From Escherichia coli (GTDB lineage Bacteria; Pseudomonadota; Gammaproteobacteria; Enterobacterales; Enterobacteriaceae), in the NCBI RefSeq assembly GCF_003334765.1, contig NZ_QOWT01000006.1: a stretch of DNA of 64,000 bases; one strand, given 5' to 3'. Within the stretch, counting starts at the first letter, position 1. Each line of letters opens with the position of its first letter. Positions 5,839-56,350 of the stretch are shown piece by piece. A program made the position numbers and the translations under genes. The notes beneath the pieces are model-generated. The model did not search any database. It saw only the letters and a program-made list of their open reading frames with translations, and was not told the DNA's origin.

Positions 5839-7518
5839 TTATTTAATCCACATAACCTGCCAGGGGCGCAGCGTTATTTCATTACCCAATATATCAACTT
5901 CACTAATCAGATCCCGACCATGCAGATTAGTAATATTTACATGCTGAATATTTTTACTGACATTAAACAATCCAGTCAGACAATTACCATCAGCGTTACT
6001 TCTTTGAATACGCATTACGGATGAATTAATCGTATCAATGGTAAAATTATTATCCGGATGAAACTCGTTATGGCTGCGACGAAGTGTAATTAAACGCGAC
6101 AACTCATGATATACCGCATGCCTTAATGTAGCTTCATCGTTCAGTTCTCGGGTTATCTCTTTACTGTGATATTTTTTACGGTTAATCGCACGGTTATATC
6201 CGATTTTTTCGACACCTGCGTAATCATTACGCGAGCCAAGAATACTTTGAATATATATCGCTGGCACACCGGGGAAACTTAACAAAATCGCATGGGCAAG
6301 GATAAACCTGGCGCAACGTTCTTCATCGCTACTCTCACGGCGGCTTAACGCATCCATATAGGTCACATTTATTTCATACGGACTGCGTGTACCGTCGGGA
6401 TTATTTTTCCAGTTTACTAATGCACCTTCCTGCTGTAACGCCTCGACCAGCTCTAATATTTCGCTTTCAGGCAACAAGCCCCGTAGCGGGTTTAGCCCGA
6501 TGCCATCGTGAGAGGCGAGGAAGTTAAACCAGGTGGTGTTGCTGGAAGGTAGTGTCAGGTTTTGCGCCCACGCACAAAGCGCCTCAACGTTCTGTTTTTG
6601 CACCGCATGCAGCACCAGTGGCGGCAGCGAGAACTGGTACACCATATGTGCTTCGTCATCGCCTGCGCCAAAGTAAGCAATGTTGTCTTTATGCGGAACA
6701 TTGGTCTCGGTAATGATCACTGTACCTGGCGCAACGTTATCAATAATCGACCGTAACAGTTTGATAATCAGATGTGTTTTTTCCAGATGGATGCAGCTTG
6801 TTCCCGGCTCTTTCCACATAAAGCCAACGGCATCCAGGCGGACATACTCAGCACCTTTCGCAAGGTAACAGAGTAAAACATCCACCATCGCCAGCAACAC
6901 TTCAGGGCTACGGTAATTCAGGTCAATTTGATCGTCACTAAAGGTGGTCCATAAATGGCGCGTTGAATGATCGCGCATCTGGAATGGCGTTAATAACGGT
7001 AACGCACGCGGGCGAGTGACGGCGCTGAGATCGGTTTGCGGGTCAACGGCAATAAAAAAATCTTCAAAACCTGGATGCTGTTGTAAATAGTTTTTAAACC
7101 ATTCACTTTTTGCCGACATATGGTTGCAGACAAAATCAAACATTAAATGACTGCATTCACCGAGTTGCTGAATATCCTGCCACTCCCCCGCTTCACTGGC
7201 GACCTGATGATAATCAATTACCGAAAAGCCATCATCAGATGACCATGGATAAAACGGCAACAAATGAACATGTGAAAAAATGCTTTGCAGCCATTGATGG
7301 TAAAACTGATTAAATGTGGGTAATGGTTTTAAATCATTGCTGTGAAATTGATCGGCATAGGTAATTAACACGACATCACTTTCATCCCAGTGTTTTTTAC
7401 GTCGCTGTGTAATTAATCGTTTCGCACTCTCAAGACGCGTTACAAGTTTCTGTAAATGAGTTGCGGTAAATGTTCCACCGTAGATTTCGTCCAGGTAATC
7501 CGTAATTTTCTGTTTCAT
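5839..7518 (-). CDS. ycjM: GH13 sucrose-phosphorylase-like glucosylglycerate phosphorylase
   Basis: ORF track 5839..7545; start set at internal ATG (MKQKITDYLDEIYGG) giving 559 aa as recalled for YcjM. Confidence 0.9.
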   Translation of the reverse strand: MKQKITDYLDEIYGGTFTATHLQKLVTRLESAKRLITQRRKKHWDESDVVLITYADQFHSNDLKPLPTFNQFYHQWLQSIFSHVHLLPFYPWSSDDGFSVIDYHQVASEAGEWQDIQQLGECSHLMFDFVCNHMSAKSEWFKNYLQQHPGFEDFFIAVDPQTDLSAVTRPRALPLLTPFQMRDHSTRHLWTTFSDDQIDLNYRSPEVLLAMVDVLLCYLAKGAEYVRLDAVGFMWKEPGTSCIHLEKTHLIIKLLRSIIDNVAPGTVIITETNVPHKDNIAYFGAGDDEAHMVYQFSLPPLVLHAVQKQNVEALCAWAQNLTLPSSNTTWFNFLASHDGIGLNPLRGLLPESEILELVEALQQEGALVNWKNNPDGTRSPYEINVTYMDALSRRESSDEERCARFILAHAILLSFPGVPAIYIQSILGSRNDYAGVEKIGYNRAINRKKYHSKEITRELNDEATLRHAVYHELSRLITLRRSHNEFHPDNNFTIDTINSSVMRIQRSNADGNCLTGLFNVSKNIQHVNITNLHGRDLISEVDILGNEITLRPWQVMWIK

Positions 7519-49380: not shown

Positions 49381-49967
49381 GTGATGAACGCTACCAACAG
49401 CGTCAGCAGCGAGTGAAAGAAAAAGTAGATGCTCGTGTGGCCCAGGCCCAGGATGAACGCGGTATTATCATCGTCTTTACCGGCAATGGAAAAGGCAAAA
49501 CCACCGCGGCATTTGGTACGGCAACACGCGCAGTTGGTCACGGAAAAAAAGTAGGCGTCGTGCAGTTTATTAAAGGCACCTGGCCTAATGGCGAACGCAA
49601 TCTGCTGGAGCCACATGGCGTTGAGTTTCAGGTGATGGCAACGGGCTTTACCTGGGATACACAAAACCGCGAGTCTGATACCGCCGCCTGCCGCGAAGTC
49701 TGGCAACATGCAAAGCGGATGCTTGCTGATTCCTCACTGGATATGGTTTTGCTTGATGAACTGACGTATATGGTGGCGTATGACTATTTGCCACTGGAAG
49801 AAGTGGTGCAGGCGTTAAATGAACGTCCACATCAACAGACGGTGATTATCACGGGTCGTGGTTGTCATCGGGATATTCTTGAACTGGCAGATACGGTAAG
49901 TGAATTACGCCCCGTCAAACATGCGTTTGATGCCGGTGTAAAAGCGCAGATAGGGATCGATTATTAA
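49377..49967 (+). CDS. cobO: corrinoid (cob(I)yrinic acid a,c-diamide) adenosyltransferase
   Basis: 196-aa ORF with P-loop (GNGKGKTTAAFG); 4-bp overlap with yciK. Confidence 0.93.
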   Translation: MSDERYQQRQQRVKEKVDARVAQAQDERGIIIVFTGNGKGKTTAAFGTATRAVGHGKKVGVVQFIKGTWPNGERNLLEPHGVEFQVMATGFTWDTQNRESDTAACREVWQHAKRMLADSSLDMVLLDELTYMVAYDYLPLEEVVQALNERPHQQTVIITGRGCHRDILELADTVSELRPVKHAFDAGVKAQIGIDY

Positions 49968-49977
49968 TCTGTAAAAA

Positions 49978-49998
49978 TGCCGGATATGACGTCCGGCA
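49978..49998. terminator. hairpin between convergent cobO and rluB
   Basis: tgccgga-tatgacg-tccggca. Confidence 0.45.
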
Positions 49999-50006
49999 TA
50001 CTTTGA

Positions 50007-50882
50007 TTAACCGTTATTATTACGTCCGCCAGAACGACGACCGCCGCTCACCTGACTGTGACGTTTCACCGCACGACGAATCTGATTCGCCTTCATGCGA
50101 CGACGGTCTTTTTCTACAGCGACTTTAGAGCTGGTTTCTGGCGGTAGCTCCACCAGTTCGCGCAGATAGTTAGTCTGGGCGAGGTCCAGCTCCGTCCAGC
50201 CACCGCGTGGCAGACCTTTTGGCAGTGGGATATCACCGTAACGAACACGGATCAGGCGGCTCACCTGCACACCAACCGCTTCCCACAGACGACGAACTTC
50301 ACGGTTACGGCCTTCGGTCAGAGTCACGTTGTACCACTGGTTGATCCCTTCGCCGCCGCTGAACTTGATGGTTTTAAAAGCTGCCGGACCATCTTCCAAC
50401 TGCACGCCACGACTCAAATCACGCAGTTTCGCGTCGTCAACCTGACCAAATACACGCACGGCATATTCACGTTCAACTTCACGGCTTGGGTGCATTAAAC
50501 GGTTTGCCAGTTCACCATCGGTGGTGAACAGCAGCAGACCACAGGTATTAACGTCCAAGCGACCCACGGCAATCCAGCGTGCGCCACGCAGTTTTGGCAG
50601 ACGGTCAAACACCGTTGGACGTCCTTCCGGATCGTTACGGGTACACAACTCACCTTCCGGTTTGTAATAGGCCAGAACGCGACAAATTTGTTCAGCGGAC
50701 TCACGTACCGAAATCAGGTGACCATCGATACGGATTTTCAATCCAGGGGTAACTTCAACACGATCGCCGAGTTTAGCAATTTTGCCATCAACACTCACAC
50801 GACCGGCTTCAATAATAGATTCGATTTCACGGCGAGAACCGTGGCCGGCACGCGCCAGCACTTTCTGTAGCTTTTCGCTCAT
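50007..50882 (-). CDS. rluB: 23S rRNA pseudouridine synthase (RsuA family)
   Basis: 291-aa [45 protein letters not shown]...; Arg/Gly-rich C-terminus. Confidence 0.93.
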
Positions 50883-51092
50883 AGAGCTTCCTTTTGGTGT
50901 CGCCTTCCCAGGCGTCTGATATGCTTTTGTGCAACAGTGAGTCAGAACTTACATCTGACTCACTGATAGTAAAGTCTGTTTGAACTCTTCAGGCCTTAAG
51001 TAAACGACTCGACGTTTATCGGCCTGGCTTTGAGGCGCAACATACTACACTATCTTTATGGTTAAAGCTTGTTTCGATTAACATCAGCTTAA

Positions 51093-52988
51093 TTACCAGC
51101 CACCACCGCCTCCGCCACCCGCGCCGCCGCCAGCACCACCACCGGAATAACTTCGCCCCAACAAACTGGTATTGGCCCCGCAACTTAGGTGCGTCTGTAA
51201 TGAGAATAAAACGCCGTTACGGGCAATCTCTGGAGCGCGAATCGCCGAAGAAAGCGAAGGGGCAATGCGTAACGCCCATTCCCTCCCCAAATTTGCCGAT
51301 ATAGCCCAACCTAGCAACGCGTAATCCAGTTTCCGTGTTTCCCCTTTCCGCCGACGTCCACTGTGTGTTGCTGCCTCTTTACGCGCAAGATAGTTAACGA
51401 TAGCTTCACCGTGGGCATAACGTTGCTGTCCAGTTTGGGTAAACTTTGGCAGAAAAATATACCCCATGCCAGTGAGATAACCGGTCAGGCAAACAGCGGT
51501 AAAATAACCCGCTGGCATATACCAGTAAAAGAATACATCTCCGACATTGATGTAGAGAGAATAGAAGGCCACGCCTGAACAAATCAGTGGTAAAAACAAA
51601 GTGATGATTACACGATTAACGCAAGGCTTGTCATCATCGCGGGCAAACAAAAGCTCAAGGGAACAAAATAAAAAAGGAATAATCCAGCAGATCATAATAA
51701 ACATATCGCCCACCAGACTCATTCCTGCCCAGCCTACAGGACTCAAGTTACCGTAAAGAATGACCGCCAATATTGCCAGTCCACCCCATTGCAAAAAAGT
51801 ATCAGACCGGTAAAACGAAGACTTTTTACGCGGCAGATAAAATTTCTGCATCCGTAAAAATGCCCTGCGTAAGACTCTGTTGCGTCTCCCCGTAAGAACG
51901 ACCTTATCGCCTTTACGAAATAACGCTTCCAGTAATAACTGCTCTGCGGGCAGTAATACCGCATTATTTCTGGTCGCGCCTTCATTAACACGAATCAGGA
52001 TTTGCTGGTTCTTGTCAGACTGATCTTCCAGATGAATTTTTCCTTTCACAATCAGATTTACGATATCGGCACAAAAACCTTTATCGTCGTAAACTAGCTT
52101 CGCATCGAGACGTAACATGCCGGGCGTGTAATCTGGCGGAATGACATCGGTTTCAATCACATCTACCGGCGTAAATTGCGGCCTGCGCTTCCAGAGATAT
52201 AACCATCCACAAACCAGGAACAGACACGGAAACCAAATTAACAACGATGACGTGGAGGGTAAAAGAAGATGGCTGAAAATATTCGTCGTTTGCGGAGCCG
52301 AGGCATTGCTAAGTAAAGCGTGAGGCCAGCGGTAGAGGACCGTGAAATCTTCACGATAAAACGGATCGCGGGATTCAATTCTTCCGTCCTCAAGGATGCG
52401 GCCATTACGATATGTGTCGCCCTCTTCTCCGGTAAAGAGATCGATTTCGCTAAATGGATTACCCGCAATATTAGAGAACTGGAGAGAAAAACGGGTCTTA
52501 TAAATTTCAAACGGCCAGTGGTTACCGGTCACGTTCCAGATTAGCAGATCAGAATCCCCCTCACGCAGGAAAGCATTTTTAACCTGATAATGAATTTGAT
52601 AATGATAGTCGCCTTGAGGCAAGAAACGTTGTTTATCGCCCACGACAATACTCATTAACCCGATATGCCAGTCAAGATGCCAGGGTTCAGGAATACCATC
52701 ACGGGTGACGCCAACAATATGATAGTTCAGCAGTGCAGCGTCCCCATCAGGCTGCATCCATAGTCGTGGTAAATCACGATAAAAGCCGTGCTTAATCTGC
52801 TGATTTCGCGCCTGAAAATGAATATTTTCTTTGATGTCGAGCACCCCATCTGGTTGCAGAGTGGCTTCAACATCAAAGAGCGAGATCCCTTCTTCATAAG
52901 AAGGGATCTCCGTGTTTTCTGCATAACTTAGAGATGATACAAACAGCCCTGCTATCAACAGCAAAATGCAGCGAAACTTCCCTGCCAT
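51093..52988 (-). CDS. yciQ: DUF2207 family membrane protein
   Basis: 631-aa ORF with signal peptide, several TM segments and Gly-rich C-terminus (GGGAGGGAGGGGGGGW). Confidence 0.88.
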   Translation of the reverse strand: MAGKFRCILLLIAGLFVSSLSYAENTEIPSYEEGISLFDVEATLQPDGVLDIKENIHFQARNQQIKHGFYRDLPRLWMQPDGDAALLNYHIVGVTRDGIPEPWHLDWHIGLMSIVVGDKQRFLPQGDYHYQIHYQVKNAFLREGDSDLLIWNVTGNHWPFEIYKTRFSLQFSNIAGNPFSEIDLFTGEEGDTYRNGRILEDGRIESRDPFYREDFTVLYRWPHALLSNASAPQTTNIFSHLLLPSTSSLLIWFPCLFLVCGWLYLWKRRPQFTPVDVIETDVIPPDYTPGMLRLDAKLVYDDKGFCADIVNLIVKGKIHLEDQSDKNQQILIRVNEGATRNNAVLLPAEQLLLEALFRKGDKVVLTGRRNRVLRRAFLRMQKFYLPRKKSSFYRSDTFLQWGGLAILAVILYGNLSPVGWAGMSLVGDMFIMICWIIPFLFCSLELLFARDDDKPCVNRVIITLFLPLICSGVAFYSLYINVGDVFFYWYMPAGYFTAVCLTGYLTGMGYIFLPKFTQTGQQRYAHGEAIVNYLARKEAATHSGRRRKGETRKLDYALLGWAISANLGREWALRIAPSLSSAIRAPEIARNGVLFSLQTHLSCGANTSLLGRSYSGGGAGGGAGGGGGGGW

Positions 52989-53015
52989 AGTCTTCCATCC
53001 GTGGAACGCAATTTG

Positions 53016-53636
53016 TTATAAGAAAGGCTTCACATCACCTACGCCTTCACGCACCACGACCGGCGTATCATCGGTAAGATCAATAACCGTTGTCGGTTTC
53101 TGCCCGAGATAGCCGCCGTGAATAATCAAATCTACCTGTTTTTCCAGACGATCTTTAATTTCTTCCGGGTCCGATTCGGTAAATTCGCTGCCTGGCAGCA
53201 TTAGCGAAGTGGAAAGCATCGGTTCGCCCAATGCTTCAAGTAACGCCTGAGCGATAGGGTTAGAAGGCACACGCATACCGATGGTTTTGCGTTTTTCCTG
53301 CAACAGACGGCGTGGCACTTCCTTCGTCCCCTTCAGGATGAAGGTATAGTTGCCCGGCGTGTTGTTTTTCATTAAACGAAACGCAACGTTATCAACAAAT
53401 GAATAGGTCGAGAGTTCAGAAAGATCGCGACACATCAGGGTAAAGTTGTGACCGTCCGGCAGCTGGCGAATACGACAAATACGCTCCATCGCGTTTTTAT
53501 CTTCAATTTTACAGCCGAGCGCATAGCCGGAATCAGTTGGATAAACAATCACCCCGCCTTTACGCACGATCTCCACCGCCTGGTTGATCAGACGTTGCTG
53601 TGGGTTATCAGGATGAATATAAAAAAACTGGCTCAT
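53016..53636 (-). CDS. yciO: YrdC/Sua5-family L-threonylcarbamoyladenylate synthase-like protein
   Basis: ORF track 53016..53672; internal ATG start MSQFFYIHPDNPQQRLINQAVEIVRKGGVIVYPTDSGYALGC... (206 aa). Confidence 0.9.
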   Translation of the reverse strand: MSQFFYIHPDNPQQRLINQAVEIVRKGGVIVYPTDSGYALGCKIEDKNAMERICRIRQLPDGHNFTLMCRDLSELSTYSFVDNVAFRLMKNNTPGNYTFILKGTKEVPRRLLQEKRKTIGMRVPSNPIAQALLEALGEPMLSTSLMLPGSEFTESDPEEIKDRLEKQVDLIIHGGYLGQKPTTVIDLTDDTPVVVREGVGDVKPFL

Positions 53637-54514
53637 AATTCCCTCTCTGTGGTGTTCTGCGGCTGTTCCCATAGCTGCCAGACGCCTTCAACGCCTGCGG
53701 GCAGCCAGAGTTTACGACCCAGTTCGATCCACGGGCATGGCTGATGAAAATCAGATCCTTGTGATGCCCATAAATGATGCTGACGCGCAAGGGCCGCCAG
53801 CTGGGTACGTTCATTGGGCGATTGCTGGCACTGCGCGACTTCCATCGCGTCACCGTGGTGTTCGGCAAAATGCGCAACCAATCTTTTCAGCCATTTAGCA
53901 CTAAGATTGTACCGCCCAGGATGAGCTAGCACCGCCTTACCGCCAGAATGATGAATGACATCAATAGCTTGTTCTATTGTACACCACTGTGGCGGAACGT
54001 ATCCGGTTTTCCCGCGCGCCAGATACTTTTTAAAGACATCCGCCATTGAACTGGCTTTGCCGCACTCAACAAGGAAACGCGCAAAATGACCGCGCGTCAC
54101 TGCGCCGCCCTGCGCCAGTCGTTGTGCGCCTTCCAGCGCCCCAGGTATTTGCGCTTTTTCAAGTCTTTCGGCAATCAGCTGCGCCCGCTGATTGCGCCGT
54201 TCTGTCTGCTGCGCGAGGAACTCACACATTAGCGGATGAGTAATATCAATATTCAGCCCGACAATATGAATTTCATGATTTTCCCAGACCGTGGAAATTT
54301 CCACGCCGGGAATAAGATTCAACGCCAGTCCCGAACGTGAAATTTCCTCTCTTGCTGGCGCGATTGCAGCTGTGGTGTCATGGTCGGTGATCGCCAGGGT
54401 GCCGACGCGCATCTCGACTGCACGGTGCACCAATGCTTCTGGCGTCAGGCAGCCATCGGAAGCTGTGGTATGGCTGTGCAGGTCGTAAATCACTGCATAA
54501 TTCGTGTCGCTCAA
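53633..54514 (-). CDS. trpH: PHP-domain phosphoesterase (5'-3' exoribonuclease RNase AM)
   Basis: 293-aa ORF MSDTNYAVIYDLHSHTTASDGCLTPEALVHRAVEMRVGTLAITDHD...; start appears to be TTG; 4-bp overlap with yciO. Confidence 0.9.
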   Translation of the reverse strand: MSDTNYAVIYDLHSHTTASDGCLTPEALVHRAVEMRVGTLAITDHDTTAAIAPAREEISRSGLALNLIPGVEISTVWENHEIHIVGLNIDITHPLMCEFLAQQTERRNQRAQLIAERLEKAQIPGALEGAQRLAQGGAVTRGHFARFLVECGKASSMADVFKKYLARGKTGYVPPQWCTIEQAIDVIHHSGGKAVLAHPGRYNLSAKWLKRLVAHFAEHHGDAMEVAQCQQSPNERTQLAALARQHHLWASQGSDFHQPCPWIELGRKLWLPAGVEGVWQLWEQPQNTTEREL

Positions 54515-54589
54515 GGCGCACTCCCGTTCTGGATAATGTTTTTTGCGCCGACATCATAACGGTTCTGGCAAATATTCTGAAATGAGCTG

Positions 54590-54625
54590 TTGACAATTAA
54601 TCATCGAACTAGTTAACTAGTACGC
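54590..54625 (+). promoter_or_regulatory. trp promoter and TrpR operator
   Basis: -35 TTGACA (54590-54595), -10 TTAACT (54613-54618), with the palindromic operator cgaactagttaactagtacg spanning the -10. Confidence 0.85.
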
Positions 54626-54651
54626 AAGTTCACGTAAAAAGGGTATCGACA

Positions 54652-54696
54652 ATGAAAGCAATTTTCGTACTGAAAGGTTGGTGGCGCACTTCCTGA
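54652..54696 (+). CDS. trpL: trp operon leader peptide ([14 protein letters not shown])
   Basis: 14-codon ORF with tandem Trp codons at 54679-54684. Confidence 0.9.
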
Positions 54697-54737
54697 AACG
54701 GGCAGTGTATTCACCATGCGTAAAGCAATCAGATACC

Positions 54738-54767
54738 CAGCCCGCCTAATGAGCGGGCTTTTTTTTG
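54738..54767 (+). terminator. trp attenuator (3:4 terminator hairpin)
   Basis: cagcccgcc-taatga-gcgggc followed by an 8-nt T run, 21 nt upstream of trpE. Confidence 0.9.
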
Positions 54768-54787
54768 AACAAAATTAGAGAATAACA

Positions 54788-56350
54788 ATGCAAACACAAA
54801 AACCGACTCTCGAACTGCTAACCTGCGAAGGCGCTTATCGCGACAATCCCACCGCGCTTTTTCACCAGTTGTGTGGGGATCGTCCGGCAACGCTGCTGCT
54901 GGAATCCGCAGATATCGACAGCAAAGATGATTTAAAAAGCCTGCTGCTGGTAGACAGTGCGCTGCGCATTACAGCTTTAGGTGACACTGTCACAATCCAG
55001 GCACTTTCCGGCAACGGCGAAGCCCTGCTGGCACTACTGGATAACGCCCTGCCTGCGGGTGTGGAAAGTGAACAATCACCAAACTGCCGTGTGCTGCGCT
55101 TCCCCCCTGTCAGTCCACTGCTGGATGAAGACGCCCGCTTATGCTCCCTTTCGGTTTTTGACGCTTTCCGTTTATTGCAGAATCTGTTGAATGTACCGAA
55201 GGAAGAACGAGAAGCCATGTTCTTCGGCGGCCTGTTCTCTTATGACCTTGTGGCGGGATTTGAAGATTTACCGCAACTGTCAGCGGAAAATAACTGCCCT
55301 GATTTCTGTTTTTATCTCGCTGAAACGCTGATGGTGATTGACCATCAGAAAAAAAGCACCCGTATTCAGGCCAGCCTGTTTGCTCCGAATGAAGAAGAAA
55401 AACAACGTCTCACTGCTCGCCTGAACGAACTACGTCAGCAACTGACCGAAGCCGCGCCGCCGCTGCCAGTGGTTTCCGTGCCGCATATGCGTTGTGAATG
55501 TAATCAGAGCGATGAAGAGTTCGGTGGCGTAGTGCGTTTGTTGCAAAAAGCGATTCGCGCTGGAGAAATTTTCCAGGTGGTGCCATCTCGCCGTTTCTCT
55601 CTGCCCTGCCCGTCACCGCTGGCGGCCTATTACGTGCTGAAAAAGAGTAATCCCAGCCCGTACATGTTTTTTATGCAGGATAATGATTTCACCCTATTTG
55701 GCGCGTCGCCGGAAAGCTCGCTCAAGTATGATGCCACCAGCCGCCAGATTGAGATCTACCCGATTGCCGGAACACGCCCACGCGGTCGTCGCGCCGATGG
55801 TTCACTGGACAGAGATCTCGACAGCCGTATTGAACTGGAAATGCGTACCGATCATAAAGAGCTGTCTGAACATCTGATGCTGGTTGATCTCGCCCGTAAT
55901 GATCTGGCACGCATTTGCACCCCCGGCAGCCGCTACGTCGCCGATCTCACCAAAGTTGACCGTTATTCCTATGTGATGCACCTCGTCTCTCGCGTAGTCG
56001 GCGAACTGCGTCACGATCTTGACGCCCTGCACGCTTATCGCGCCTGTATGAATATGGGGACGTTAAGCGGTGCGCCGAAAGTACGCGCTATGCAGTTAAT
56101 TGCCGAGGCGGAAGGTCGTCGCCGCGGCAGCTACGGCGGCGCGGTAGGTTATTTCACCGCGCATGGCGATCTCGACACCTGCATTGTGATCCGCTCGGCG
56201 CTGGTGGAAAACGGTATCGCCACCGTGCAAGCGGGTGCTGGTGTAGTCCTTGATTCTGTTCCGCAGTCGGAAGCCGACGAAACCCGTAACAAAGCCCGCG
56301 CTGTACTGCGCGCTATTGCCACCGCGCATCATGCACAGGAGACTTTCTGA
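54788..56350 (+). CDS. trpE: anthranilate synthase component I
   Basis: 520-aa [53 protein letters not shown]... Confidence 0.97.

Follow-up and report, generated by a model that had tools for sequence, protein, structure and literature searches.

The rnm–yciO–yciQ locus is known from Escherichia coli K-12, where rnm is also called yciV or trpH, where RefSeq annotates all three genes, and where databases give the unit as yciVOQ. RNase AM, the product of rnm, matures the 5′ ends of 5S, 16S, and 23S rRNA (PMC7261194). One study has reported that yciO and rnm lie together in many species and that YciO has a role related to rRNA (PMC12506659), so the pairing of these two genes is already published. 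The same study gives rnm adjacency as a signature that separates YciO from TsaC, and it disputes the database name "threonylcarbamoyladenylate synthase" for YciO.

Other systems resemble the third gene. In diverse bacteria, genes for DUF2207 proteins form two-gene modules with lemA, and these proteins have the same Pfam domains, predicted architecture, and poly-Gly-Trp end as YciQ. LemA-like domains are reported to be four-helix bundles linked to membrane remodeling. In the literature searched, we found no function for LemA–DUF2207 pairs, and deletion phenotypes for the DUF2207 family were found only for SMU.243 of Streptococcus mutans (PMC10457818). This protein is related to YciQ only at the family level; its host is Gram-positive and its gene adjoins uppP. 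When SMU.243 is deleted, S. mutans tolerates acid and oxidative stress less well and forms less biofilm (PMC10457818).

The rnm–yciO pair and the yciQ cassette

The locus analyzed here lies in a 64-kb stretch of E. coli DNA (the window), and its genes are all on the minus strand. The first, rnm (53633–54514; 293 aa, TTG start), encodes the PHP-domain 5′–3′ exoribonuclease RNase AM, and its product matches the NCBIfam model for RNase RNM (NF047791) over residues 9–282 with 505.9 bits (cut-off 375). The second, yciO (53016–53636; 206 aa), encodes a TsaC/YrdC paralog that scores 265 bits against TIGR00057 (cut-off 123.2) but only 71.9 bits against the TsaC model (cut-off 175), and its adjacency to rnm is the signature of the YciO subfamily. 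The third, yciQ (51093–52988; 631 aa), encodes an inner-membrane protein with matches to DUF2207 (PF09972; residues 35–175, E = 2.1e-21) and DUF2207_C (PF20990; residues 284–535, E = 5.6e-9). An NCBIfam search returned no family for YciQ. Downstream is the conserved neighbor rluB (50007–50882, minus strand), a 23S rRNA pseudouridine synthase gene that is included for context only. The rnm–yciO–yciQ stretch shows no sequence difference from the K-12 locus and is 100% identical to many E. coli chromosomes in which the genes are annotated under these names. They are ordinary, already known E. coli genes.

A preliminary description of this DNA had placed three co-directional genes at these limits, leaving the strand unstated. 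The open reading frame list and the sequence agree with it, and its gene identities hold against the family models and the identical annotated chromosomes. It had given junctions of 4 and 28 bp. The rnm TGA and the yciO ATG do overlap by 4 bp, as ATGA, whereas the second value is a coordinate difference: the spacer between yciO and yciQ (52989–53015, minus strand) measures 27 nt and holds the yciQ ribosome-binding site. The tight packing that was described is real, and a consensus scan found no terminator-like site between the three genes.

Three smaller features were noted nearby. A candidate sigma-70-like promoter 5′ of rnm (54553–54581, minus strand; TTCAGA-17-TATGAT), divergent from the trp promoter, comes from a consensus scan only, and its 9 of 12 consensus matches are no proof of function. 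A palindrome with a perfect 13-bp stem in yciQ codons 27–36 (52882–52910, no strand assigned) is kept in Escherichia alleles and absent in Klebsiella. When positions 49900–54900 were scanned by E-value against Rfam, the trp leader was the sole match.

Pairing of rnm with yciO is highly conserved. The two genes are adjacent and on one strand in 79 of the 80 species-level Enterobacteriaceae genomes sampled; the remaining species falls outside the count with a truncated Rnm match. YciO itself is identical across all seven E. coli alleles compared. Counting the species with ATGA where yciO begins proved uninformative and was dropped, since a second codon for serine (AGC) produces ATGA without any overlap. 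The rnm and yciO genes are thus a conserved, translationally coupled pair.

The distribution of yciQ is very different. Megablast matches to yciQ are present in 3977 of 5426 complete E. coli genomes and lacking in 1449 (∼27%), whereas the flanks are found in 5423; the gene is full length in ∼73% of complete genomes. Among the 73 Enterobacteriaceae species that could be evaluated, only three have a full yciQ, and all 70 that do not still keep rnm–yciO. The order rnm–yciO–yciQ, whose conservation would mark a conserved functional operon, is therefore not maintained across the species that keep the pair.

In the yciQ-less E. coli strains sampled, yciO is followed by 100 nt and then rluB. Conservation of this compact spacer extends to at least six genera: the E. 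coli version can be aligned with its counterparts in E. albertii, Citrobacter, Enterobacter, Buttiauxella, and Franconibacter, all of which have a TATACT element and a hairpin. By comparing junctions with a yciQ-less E. coli strain and aligning spacers across genera, we mapped a segment of ∼2.1 kb (50917–53015, minus strand), composed of 27 nt, yciQ, and ∼176 nt, that replaces ∼65 nt of the compact spacer and so displaces the TATACT element. The 210-nt yciQ–rluB spacer (50883–51092, minus strand) shares only its last ∼34 nt with the compact allele; it folds as a structured RNA at −65.9 kcal/mol (z = −4.4) and has no Rfam match. Local GC content is 0.42–0.47, versus about 0.52–0.55 in rnm and rluB. 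Other inserts occupy the yciO–rluB junction in 33 of 67 species, including TssD/Hcp, a LysE-type exporter, an HNH protein, a hydrolase, AraC and LysR regulators, ttdA, and a serine recombinase. Decay of yciQ can be seen directly in a 420-nt remnant in Escherichia sp. E1V33, in an in-frame deletion that removes residues 278–377 of the E. coli O157:H7 protein, and in IS1, IS3, and IS26 insertions. The variable spot between yciO and rluB thus houses yciQ as an accessory cassette.

The history of this cassette can be read in two ways, with the indel as an insertion or as a loss. It lies at the same site in three genera, the gene order being shared with some Klebsiella and with GCA_001484765.1, and its 5′ spacer is conserved, with the core TTCCACGGA(T/A)GGAA kept in the E. 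coli, Klebsiella, and GCA_001484765.1 cassettes. YciQ identities of 57%, 41%, and 42% correspond to YciO identities of 95%, 91%, and 90%. Divergence therefore tracks that of the flanks, which indicates long residence at the site and would be equally in line with selection on co-expression. Conservation of the compact spacer favors an ancestral compact state; an old cassette residence, as indicated by the scaling of divergence, pulls against that reading.

Across E. coli alleles, yciQ has a dN/dS of 0.10–0.18 at dS values up to 0.20. These values show sustained purifying selection, and on them a pseudogene reading was rejected. YciQ identity is 94–97% within E. coli and 57% between E. coli and Klebsiella, and the protein evolves 5–10 times faster than its neighbors. 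Judged by these comparisons, yciQ is a working gene, yet a fast-evolving one. Overexpression of YciQ is reported to affect the accumulation of membrane-integrated receptors (PMC3120638). Engineered strains routinely use yciQ as an integration site.

Architecture of YciQ and its relation to LemA-linked proteins

The large DUF2207 membrane protein seen in the preliminary description is borne out by both Pfam domains and by the predicted topology. YciQ, whose AlphaFold2 model has a mean pLDDT of 85 and a pTM of 0.75, is predicted to have a signal peptide (residues 1–23), a periplasmic beta-sandwich (residues 34–222; 52323–52889, minus strand, as for the features that follow), one membrane helix, and a cytoplasmic alpha/beta domain (residues 289–391; 51816–52124). 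These are predicted to be followed by a four-helix membrane bundle (residues 396–512; 51453–51803), a cytoplasmic helical region, a disordered Ser/Gly tether of ∼35 residues, and the poly-Gly-Trp end (residues 617–631; 51096–51140), which is expected to be cytoplasmic. The periplasmic domain resembles the N-terminal beta-domain of M1 aminopeptidases and LTA4H and the luminal domain of ribophorin I (OST1), at 5%–13% identity. Unlike M1 aminopeptidases, YciQ has no catalytic zinc domain, and the likeness is one of structure rather than of family membership. A PDB sequence search with the family profile was also tried, and gave only Gly-linker artefacts such as scFv linkers.

The C-terminus of YciQ reads GGGAGGGAGGGGGGGW, with the final residues ...SYSGGGAGGGAGGGGGGGW and the end GGGGGGGW. 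The preliminary description had pointed to a Gly-rich tail. The tail is real, but it is not special to YciQ and marks the DUF2207 family as a whole. A tryptophan after a glycine run terminates 106 of 117 full-length family representatives; in the family alignment G624 and G627 never vary, and conservation of W631 reaches at least 90%. The yciQ gene retains the family-invariant residues and the Gly7-Trp end. The poly-Gly-Trp end is therefore a family hallmark. In the model, the tail has pLDDT values of 89–95 and forms a strand at residues 627–630 after the disordered linker (residues 580–616). A model of a second DUF2207 homolog (P0045) has the same tail pattern and the same predicted architecture. 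Both models, which were built on largely the same alignment, show the tail strand together with isolated beta-bridge residues at the junctions before TM2 and after TM5 (positions 392 and 516 in YciQ, 397 and 520 in P0045).

The DUF2207 family comprises 4368 representative clusters at E ≤ 0.001. Among nine distant yciQ homologs, seven have lemA directly upstream, overlapping or no more than 27 nt away, and none lies behind rnm or yciO. In contrast to these modules, lemA is missing from the sampled loci of the E. coli, Klebsiella, and Serratia copies, which follow yciO or metK; the Serratia fonticola homolog stands alone after metK. The gene directly upstream of yciQ is yciO rather than a coupled lemA. 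When five LemA proteins were used as tblastn queries, the window yielded nothing credible (best E = 0.72), and six enterobacterial yciQ loci yielded nothing. YciQ is a DUF2207 member that has lost its usual partner gene. LemA is presumably also a partner of tail-anchored bacterial TPM proteins (DUF477, Psb32-like/YgcG), whose extracytoplasmic fold is unrelated to that of YciQ and which have one membrane helix versus five.

Alternative explanations for the locus

Consensus scans at the yciO–yciQ junction gave neither a promoter nor a terminator match, but such scans are uninformative there, at the yciQ–rluB junction, and in the compact spacer. The promoter scans miss even the conserved TATACT element, since they demand a −35 hexamer. 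Among the promoters listed in a genomic SELEX study is an internal sigma-70 one that lies between yciO and yciQ (PMC3946193). Taking this listing with the gene arrangement, we infer that yciQ probably rides on read-through from rnm–yciO and may use its own promoter in addition. The preliminary description had tied yciQ to rnm–yciO transcription and had named independent transcription in advance as evidence to the contrary, which is the type of evidence that the listed promoter provides.

The explanation that we consider likely is that a conserved rnm–yciO pair stands beside an accessory yciQ cassette in a variable spot, and that the genes are adjacent without a shared pathway. The position of yciQ would then reflect where the cassette resides rather than joint action with RNase AM or YciO. 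A true functional operon, in which YciQ works with these two proteins, for example by membrane tethering or regulation of late rRNA maturation, would fit the 4-bp overlap, the 27-nt spacer without a terminator-like site, the listing as yciVOQ, the arrangement and conserved spacer found also in some Klebsiella and in GCA_001484765.1, and the fact that the next gene, rluB, likewise acts on rRNA. We nevertheless regard it as quite improbable. The rnm–yciO pair is kept where yciQ is missing, in 27% of E. coli genomes and 70 of 73 species, unrelated cargo occupies the same spot elsewhere, distant DUF2207 relatives are coupled to lemA and not to RNA enzymes, and YciQ evolves much faster than its neighbors. 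These observations speak against the functional link between RNA processing and YciQ that the preliminary description had implied, and yciQ can be explained without any link to RNA metabolism.

The losses of yciQ could also mean that the E. coli gene, orphaned of LemA, is a functionless leftover that is kept by drift only and is heading for loss. Its clean absence from 27% of genomes, the IS insertions, the O157 deletion, the E1V33 remnant, its routine use as an integration site, and the lack of a nearby lemA all agree with this idea. It is unlikely given the sustained purifying selection, the full-length gene in ∼73% of genomes, the retained invariant residues and Gly7-Trp end, and the effect of overexpression on receptor accumulation. 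Diversifying selection, for instance through phage or toxin targeting of YciQ, might instead underlie both the polymorphism and the fast evolution. It would account for the presence/absence pattern, for variation in YciQ where YciO is identical, for the 57% identity with Klebsiella, and for the T6SS cargo that occupies this spot in other genera. Yet the gene-wide dN/dS is far under 1, YciQ is predicted to reside in the inner membrane and not at the cell surface, and YciQ has no significant match in defense or phage family libraries (best PADLOC E-value 0.052; no PHROGs match). We consider this explanation very improbable.

Implications for YciQ and the DUF2207 family

The most likely mechanism, proposed with low confidence, is that YciQ serves as an envelope-associated sensor or scaffold. 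Its periplasmic domain might bind a peptide or glycan ligand, and the tethered Gly7-Trp end might dock like a latch where the bundle opens to the cytoplasm, beside a conserved P-T-x-x-G motif. Docking of the tail is suggested, again with low confidence, by pLDDT values and DSSP strings only. In relatives, the four-helix protein LemA would act at the tail docking site. A tentative and rather doubtful generalization is that the Ser/Gly tether and a Gly7–11-Trp latch form the functional core of a widespread DUF2207 membrane module that gates or reports the state of the periplasmic ligand domain. Such a module would usually occur with LemA, and tail-anchored TPM proteins may have it as well. If this proposal is true, then E. 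coli YciQ would offer a tractable form of the module that lacks LemA.

What these findings add to the known K-12 locus is that its third gene is accessory and sits within a variable spot, and they flag the yciO–rluB junction as a site of variable content in Enterobacteriaceae. They also remove a false lead: tight packing with rnm–yciO is no ground for linking YciQ to RNA metabolism, and yciQ is unfit as context for working out the function of YciO. For the large DUF2207 family there is now a description that comprises a predicted topology, fold relatives, lemA as the usual partner, and a near-universal poly-Gly-Trp end whose role is open to testing in E. coli.

Identity and arrangement of the three genes

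In the trp neighborhood of E. coli that makes up this region, three co-directional genes occupy positions 51093-54514, as the preliminary description had proposed; all lie on the minus strand. The first, rnm (trpH; 54514..53633), has a TTG start and encodes 293 aa. Its TGA stop codon overlaps the ATG of yciO (53636..53016; 206 aa) as ATGA, which agrees with the 4-bp junction claimed earlier. Next comes yciQ (52988..51093; 631 aa), preceded by a spacer with a GGAAG ribosome-binding site. The packing at this second junction is indeed tight, but the spacer measures 27 nt rather than 28 nt, which was the sole slip. A 210-nt spacer then separates yciQ from rluB (50882..50007, same strand). The trp operon leader (Rfam RF00513, 93 bits; window 54673-54766) is divergent from rnm, as expected at such a locus.

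Many E. coli chromosomes with rnm, yciO, and yciQ annotated match the stretch at 100% identity. Rnm scores 505.9 bits against the RNase RNM equivalog model (cut-off 375), YciO scores 265 bits against TIGR00057, and YciQ matches Pfam DUF2207 and DUF2207_C. These matches concur with the existing annotation of all three, which makes them known, ordinary genes. The link between rnm and yciO is genuine and has been published before. RNase AM, the product of rnm, carries out 5′-end maturation of all three rRNAs (PMC7261194). YciO does not substitute for TsaC in vivo and is thought to act on rRNA, in part because of its colocalization with rnm (PMC12506659).

yciQ as an occupant of a variable spot

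The rnm-yciO-yciQ trio is not a conserved unit. Among 5426 complete E. coli genomes, the flanks are matched in 5423 and yciQ in only 3977. In yciQ-less E. coli, sampled at the bottom of the match ranking, yciO is followed cleanly by 100 nt and then rluB. Homology between the window and such a strain breaks off right at the yciO stop codon and resumes ∼34 nt ahead of rluB. In the window, ∼2.1 kb (50917-53015) occupies the place of ∼65 nt of the compact spacer. We also surveyed 80 species-level Enterobacteriaceae genomes with YciO at ≥92% identity. Rnm adjoins YciO in 79 of them, and a full yciQ is present in only three of the 73 loci with sufficient downstream sequence (Escherichia sp., K. spallanzanii, and K. 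grimontii). Of 67 species, 34 have yciO and rluB 86-105 nt apart, and the other 33 have a longer gap. Because the larger gaps carry unrelated genes (TssD/Hcp, a PAAR-like toxin candidate, a LysE-type exporter, an HNH protein, an alpha/beta hydrolase, AraC and LysR regulators, tartrate dehydratase, and a serine recombinase), this junction is a variable-content spot with yciQ as one of several alternative occupants.

Type VI secretion cargo is found there in several genera (loci L049, L066, L079, and L092). Some of these loci have an Hcp/TssD gene; others encode proteins of 460-475 aa, Cys-rich at the N-terminus and hydrophobic and Gly/Ala-rich at the C-terminus, with a gene for a small membrane protein next in line, a candidate toxin and immunity pair. 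L066 carries a serine recombinase as well.

Where present, yciQ is a living gene. Six E. coli alleles give pairwise dN/dS values of 0.10-0.18 and dS values reaching 0.20. The dS values resemble those of neighboring genes, and dN is 5-10 times higher than theirs; YciO is identical in all compared alleles. Between E. coli and Klebsiella, identity is 57% for YciQ, 79% for Rnm, 95% for YciO, and 94% for RluB. At this site, a third lineage (GCA_001484765.1) carries a copy with 41% identity, and the spacer core TTCCACGGA(T/A)GGAA is common to all three.

Because YciQ divergence scales with flank divergence, these sequences suggest long residence at the present site. The cassette may have been inserted once and then lost repeatedly, or it may move by recombination via the conserved flanks. 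Losses are directly visible in a remnant, an in-frame deletion, and IS insertions. In Escherichia sp. E1V33 (6622-7041 of its locus), a 420-nt remnant with the 5′ spacer, start codon, and downstream spacer terminates ...GGTGGTTGGTAA, retaining the GGW-stop end; this is direct evidence for yciQ decay through internal deletion. The O157:H7 allele (1379-2962 of its locus) lacks residues 278-377 in frame, which is the entire predicted cytoplasmic alpha/beta domain, as well as four tail residues; the frame is open and the Gly7-Trp end is kept. IS1, IS3, or IS26 interrupts yciQ in several E. coli strains (H1, H2, H9, and H49). Separately, one 3.9-kb Logan contig (P0013) encodes a 399-aa chimera of the SohB N-terminus (peptidase S49 domains) and the final quarter of YciQ, the latter 100% identical; it looks like a deletion fusion from sohB to yciQ in one assembly.

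Predicted structure, tail, and family partners

An AlphaFold2 model of YciQ (mean pLDDT 85, pTM 0.75), together with hydropathy and charge counts read by the positive-inside rule, predicts a signal peptide (residues 1-23), a periplasmic beta-sandwich (34-222), TM1 (246-267), a cytoplasmic alpha/beta domain (289-391), four membrane helices (396-512), cytoplasmic helices (518-579), a disordered stretch (580-616), and a confidently placed terminal strand (627-630). The model of a LemA-linked homolog (pLDDT 89.6) has the same plan. In both, the terminal strand accompanies isolated beta-bridge residues at the junctions before TM2 and after TM5, the latter adjoining a near-invariant T-x-x-G motif. 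The alignments behind the two models overlap, and this co-occurrence is a lead rather than a result.

The Gly-rich tail noted earlier is real and ends ...GGGAGGGAGGGGGGGW. With no word index, a DUF2207 search found 4368 representative clusters at E ≤ 0.001. The Trp after the poly-Gly run is the terminus in 106 of 117 full-length representatives, and an alignment of 118 sequences shows no variation at G624 or G627 and at least 90% conservation of W631. E. coli alleles have a fixed Gly7-Trp end, preceded by a Gly/Ala/Ser stretch that varies via short indels. Being near-universal among representatives, the tail is a family hallmark and no quirk of yciQ.

Gene context was obtained for nine distant homologs (∼25-33% identity). 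Seven have lemA directly upstream, either with a 4-nt overlap or at most 27 nt away, and two do not; a Serratia fonticola copy (38% identity) is solitary, after metK. No PHP nuclease or YciO-like gene was found beside any of these, and no encoded LemA was found in the window or six enterobacterial yciQ loci. From these contexts, the enterobacterial clade is a LemA-orphaned branch of a family with LemA as its usual partner. LemA is described in the literature as a membrane-anchored four-helix-bundle protein, with related domains tied to membrane remodeling.

Transcription and the meaning of the adjacency

A sequence scan found no terminator-like site between yciO and yciQ or after yciQ, which makes read-through from the rnm promoter into yciQ plausible. 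In a genomic SELEX study, a sigma-70 promoter internal to yciVOQ, the rnm-yciO-yciQ unit, is listed between yciO and yciQ (PMC3946193). Read-through and this promoter may both serve yciQ.

Without yciQ, E. coli has a 100-nt spacer that can be aligned with those of E. albertii, Citrobacter, Enterobacter, Buttiauxella, and Franconibacter; all contain a TATACT element along with a hairpin and the block GACGCCTGTGAAGGCGACAC. TATACT is kept in eight genomes of six genera (L001, 1367-1466, and the L015, L023, L045, L048, L070, L071, and L088 spacers), preceded by TG in three and followed by the hairpin; it is a likely rluB promoter. The cassette displaces it. The 210-nt yciQ-rluB spacer (50883-51092, minus strand) is unusually structured (−65.9 kcal/mol, z = −4.4 versus shuffles), with a 12-bp hairpin (CAGUGAGUCAGA...UCUGACUCACUG), no U-tract, and no Rfam match. 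Within yciQ codons 27-36 (52882-52910) lies a perfect palindrome with a 13-bp stem and 3-nt loop (GAGATCCCTTCTTATGAAGAAGGGATCTC), whose 70-nt RNA context folds at ∼−22 kcal/mol. Escherichia alleles keep it (two with one G-U change or one mismatch), and Klebsiella is without it.

YciQ overexpression is reported to have increased the accumulation of membrane-integrated receptors in one selection (PMC3120638). Engineered strains repeatedly use yciQ as an integration site. When a DUF2207 gene is deleted in Streptococcus mutans, the cells tolerate acid and oxidative stress less well and form less biofilm (PMC10457818).

Open reading frames and family models bear out the gene identities and tight packing of the preliminary description, but not its functional link between RNA metabolism and the membrane protein, as yciQ is accessory and its relatives have other partners. 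The adjacency of yciQ to rnm-yciO is best explained as the place where an accessory cassette sits.
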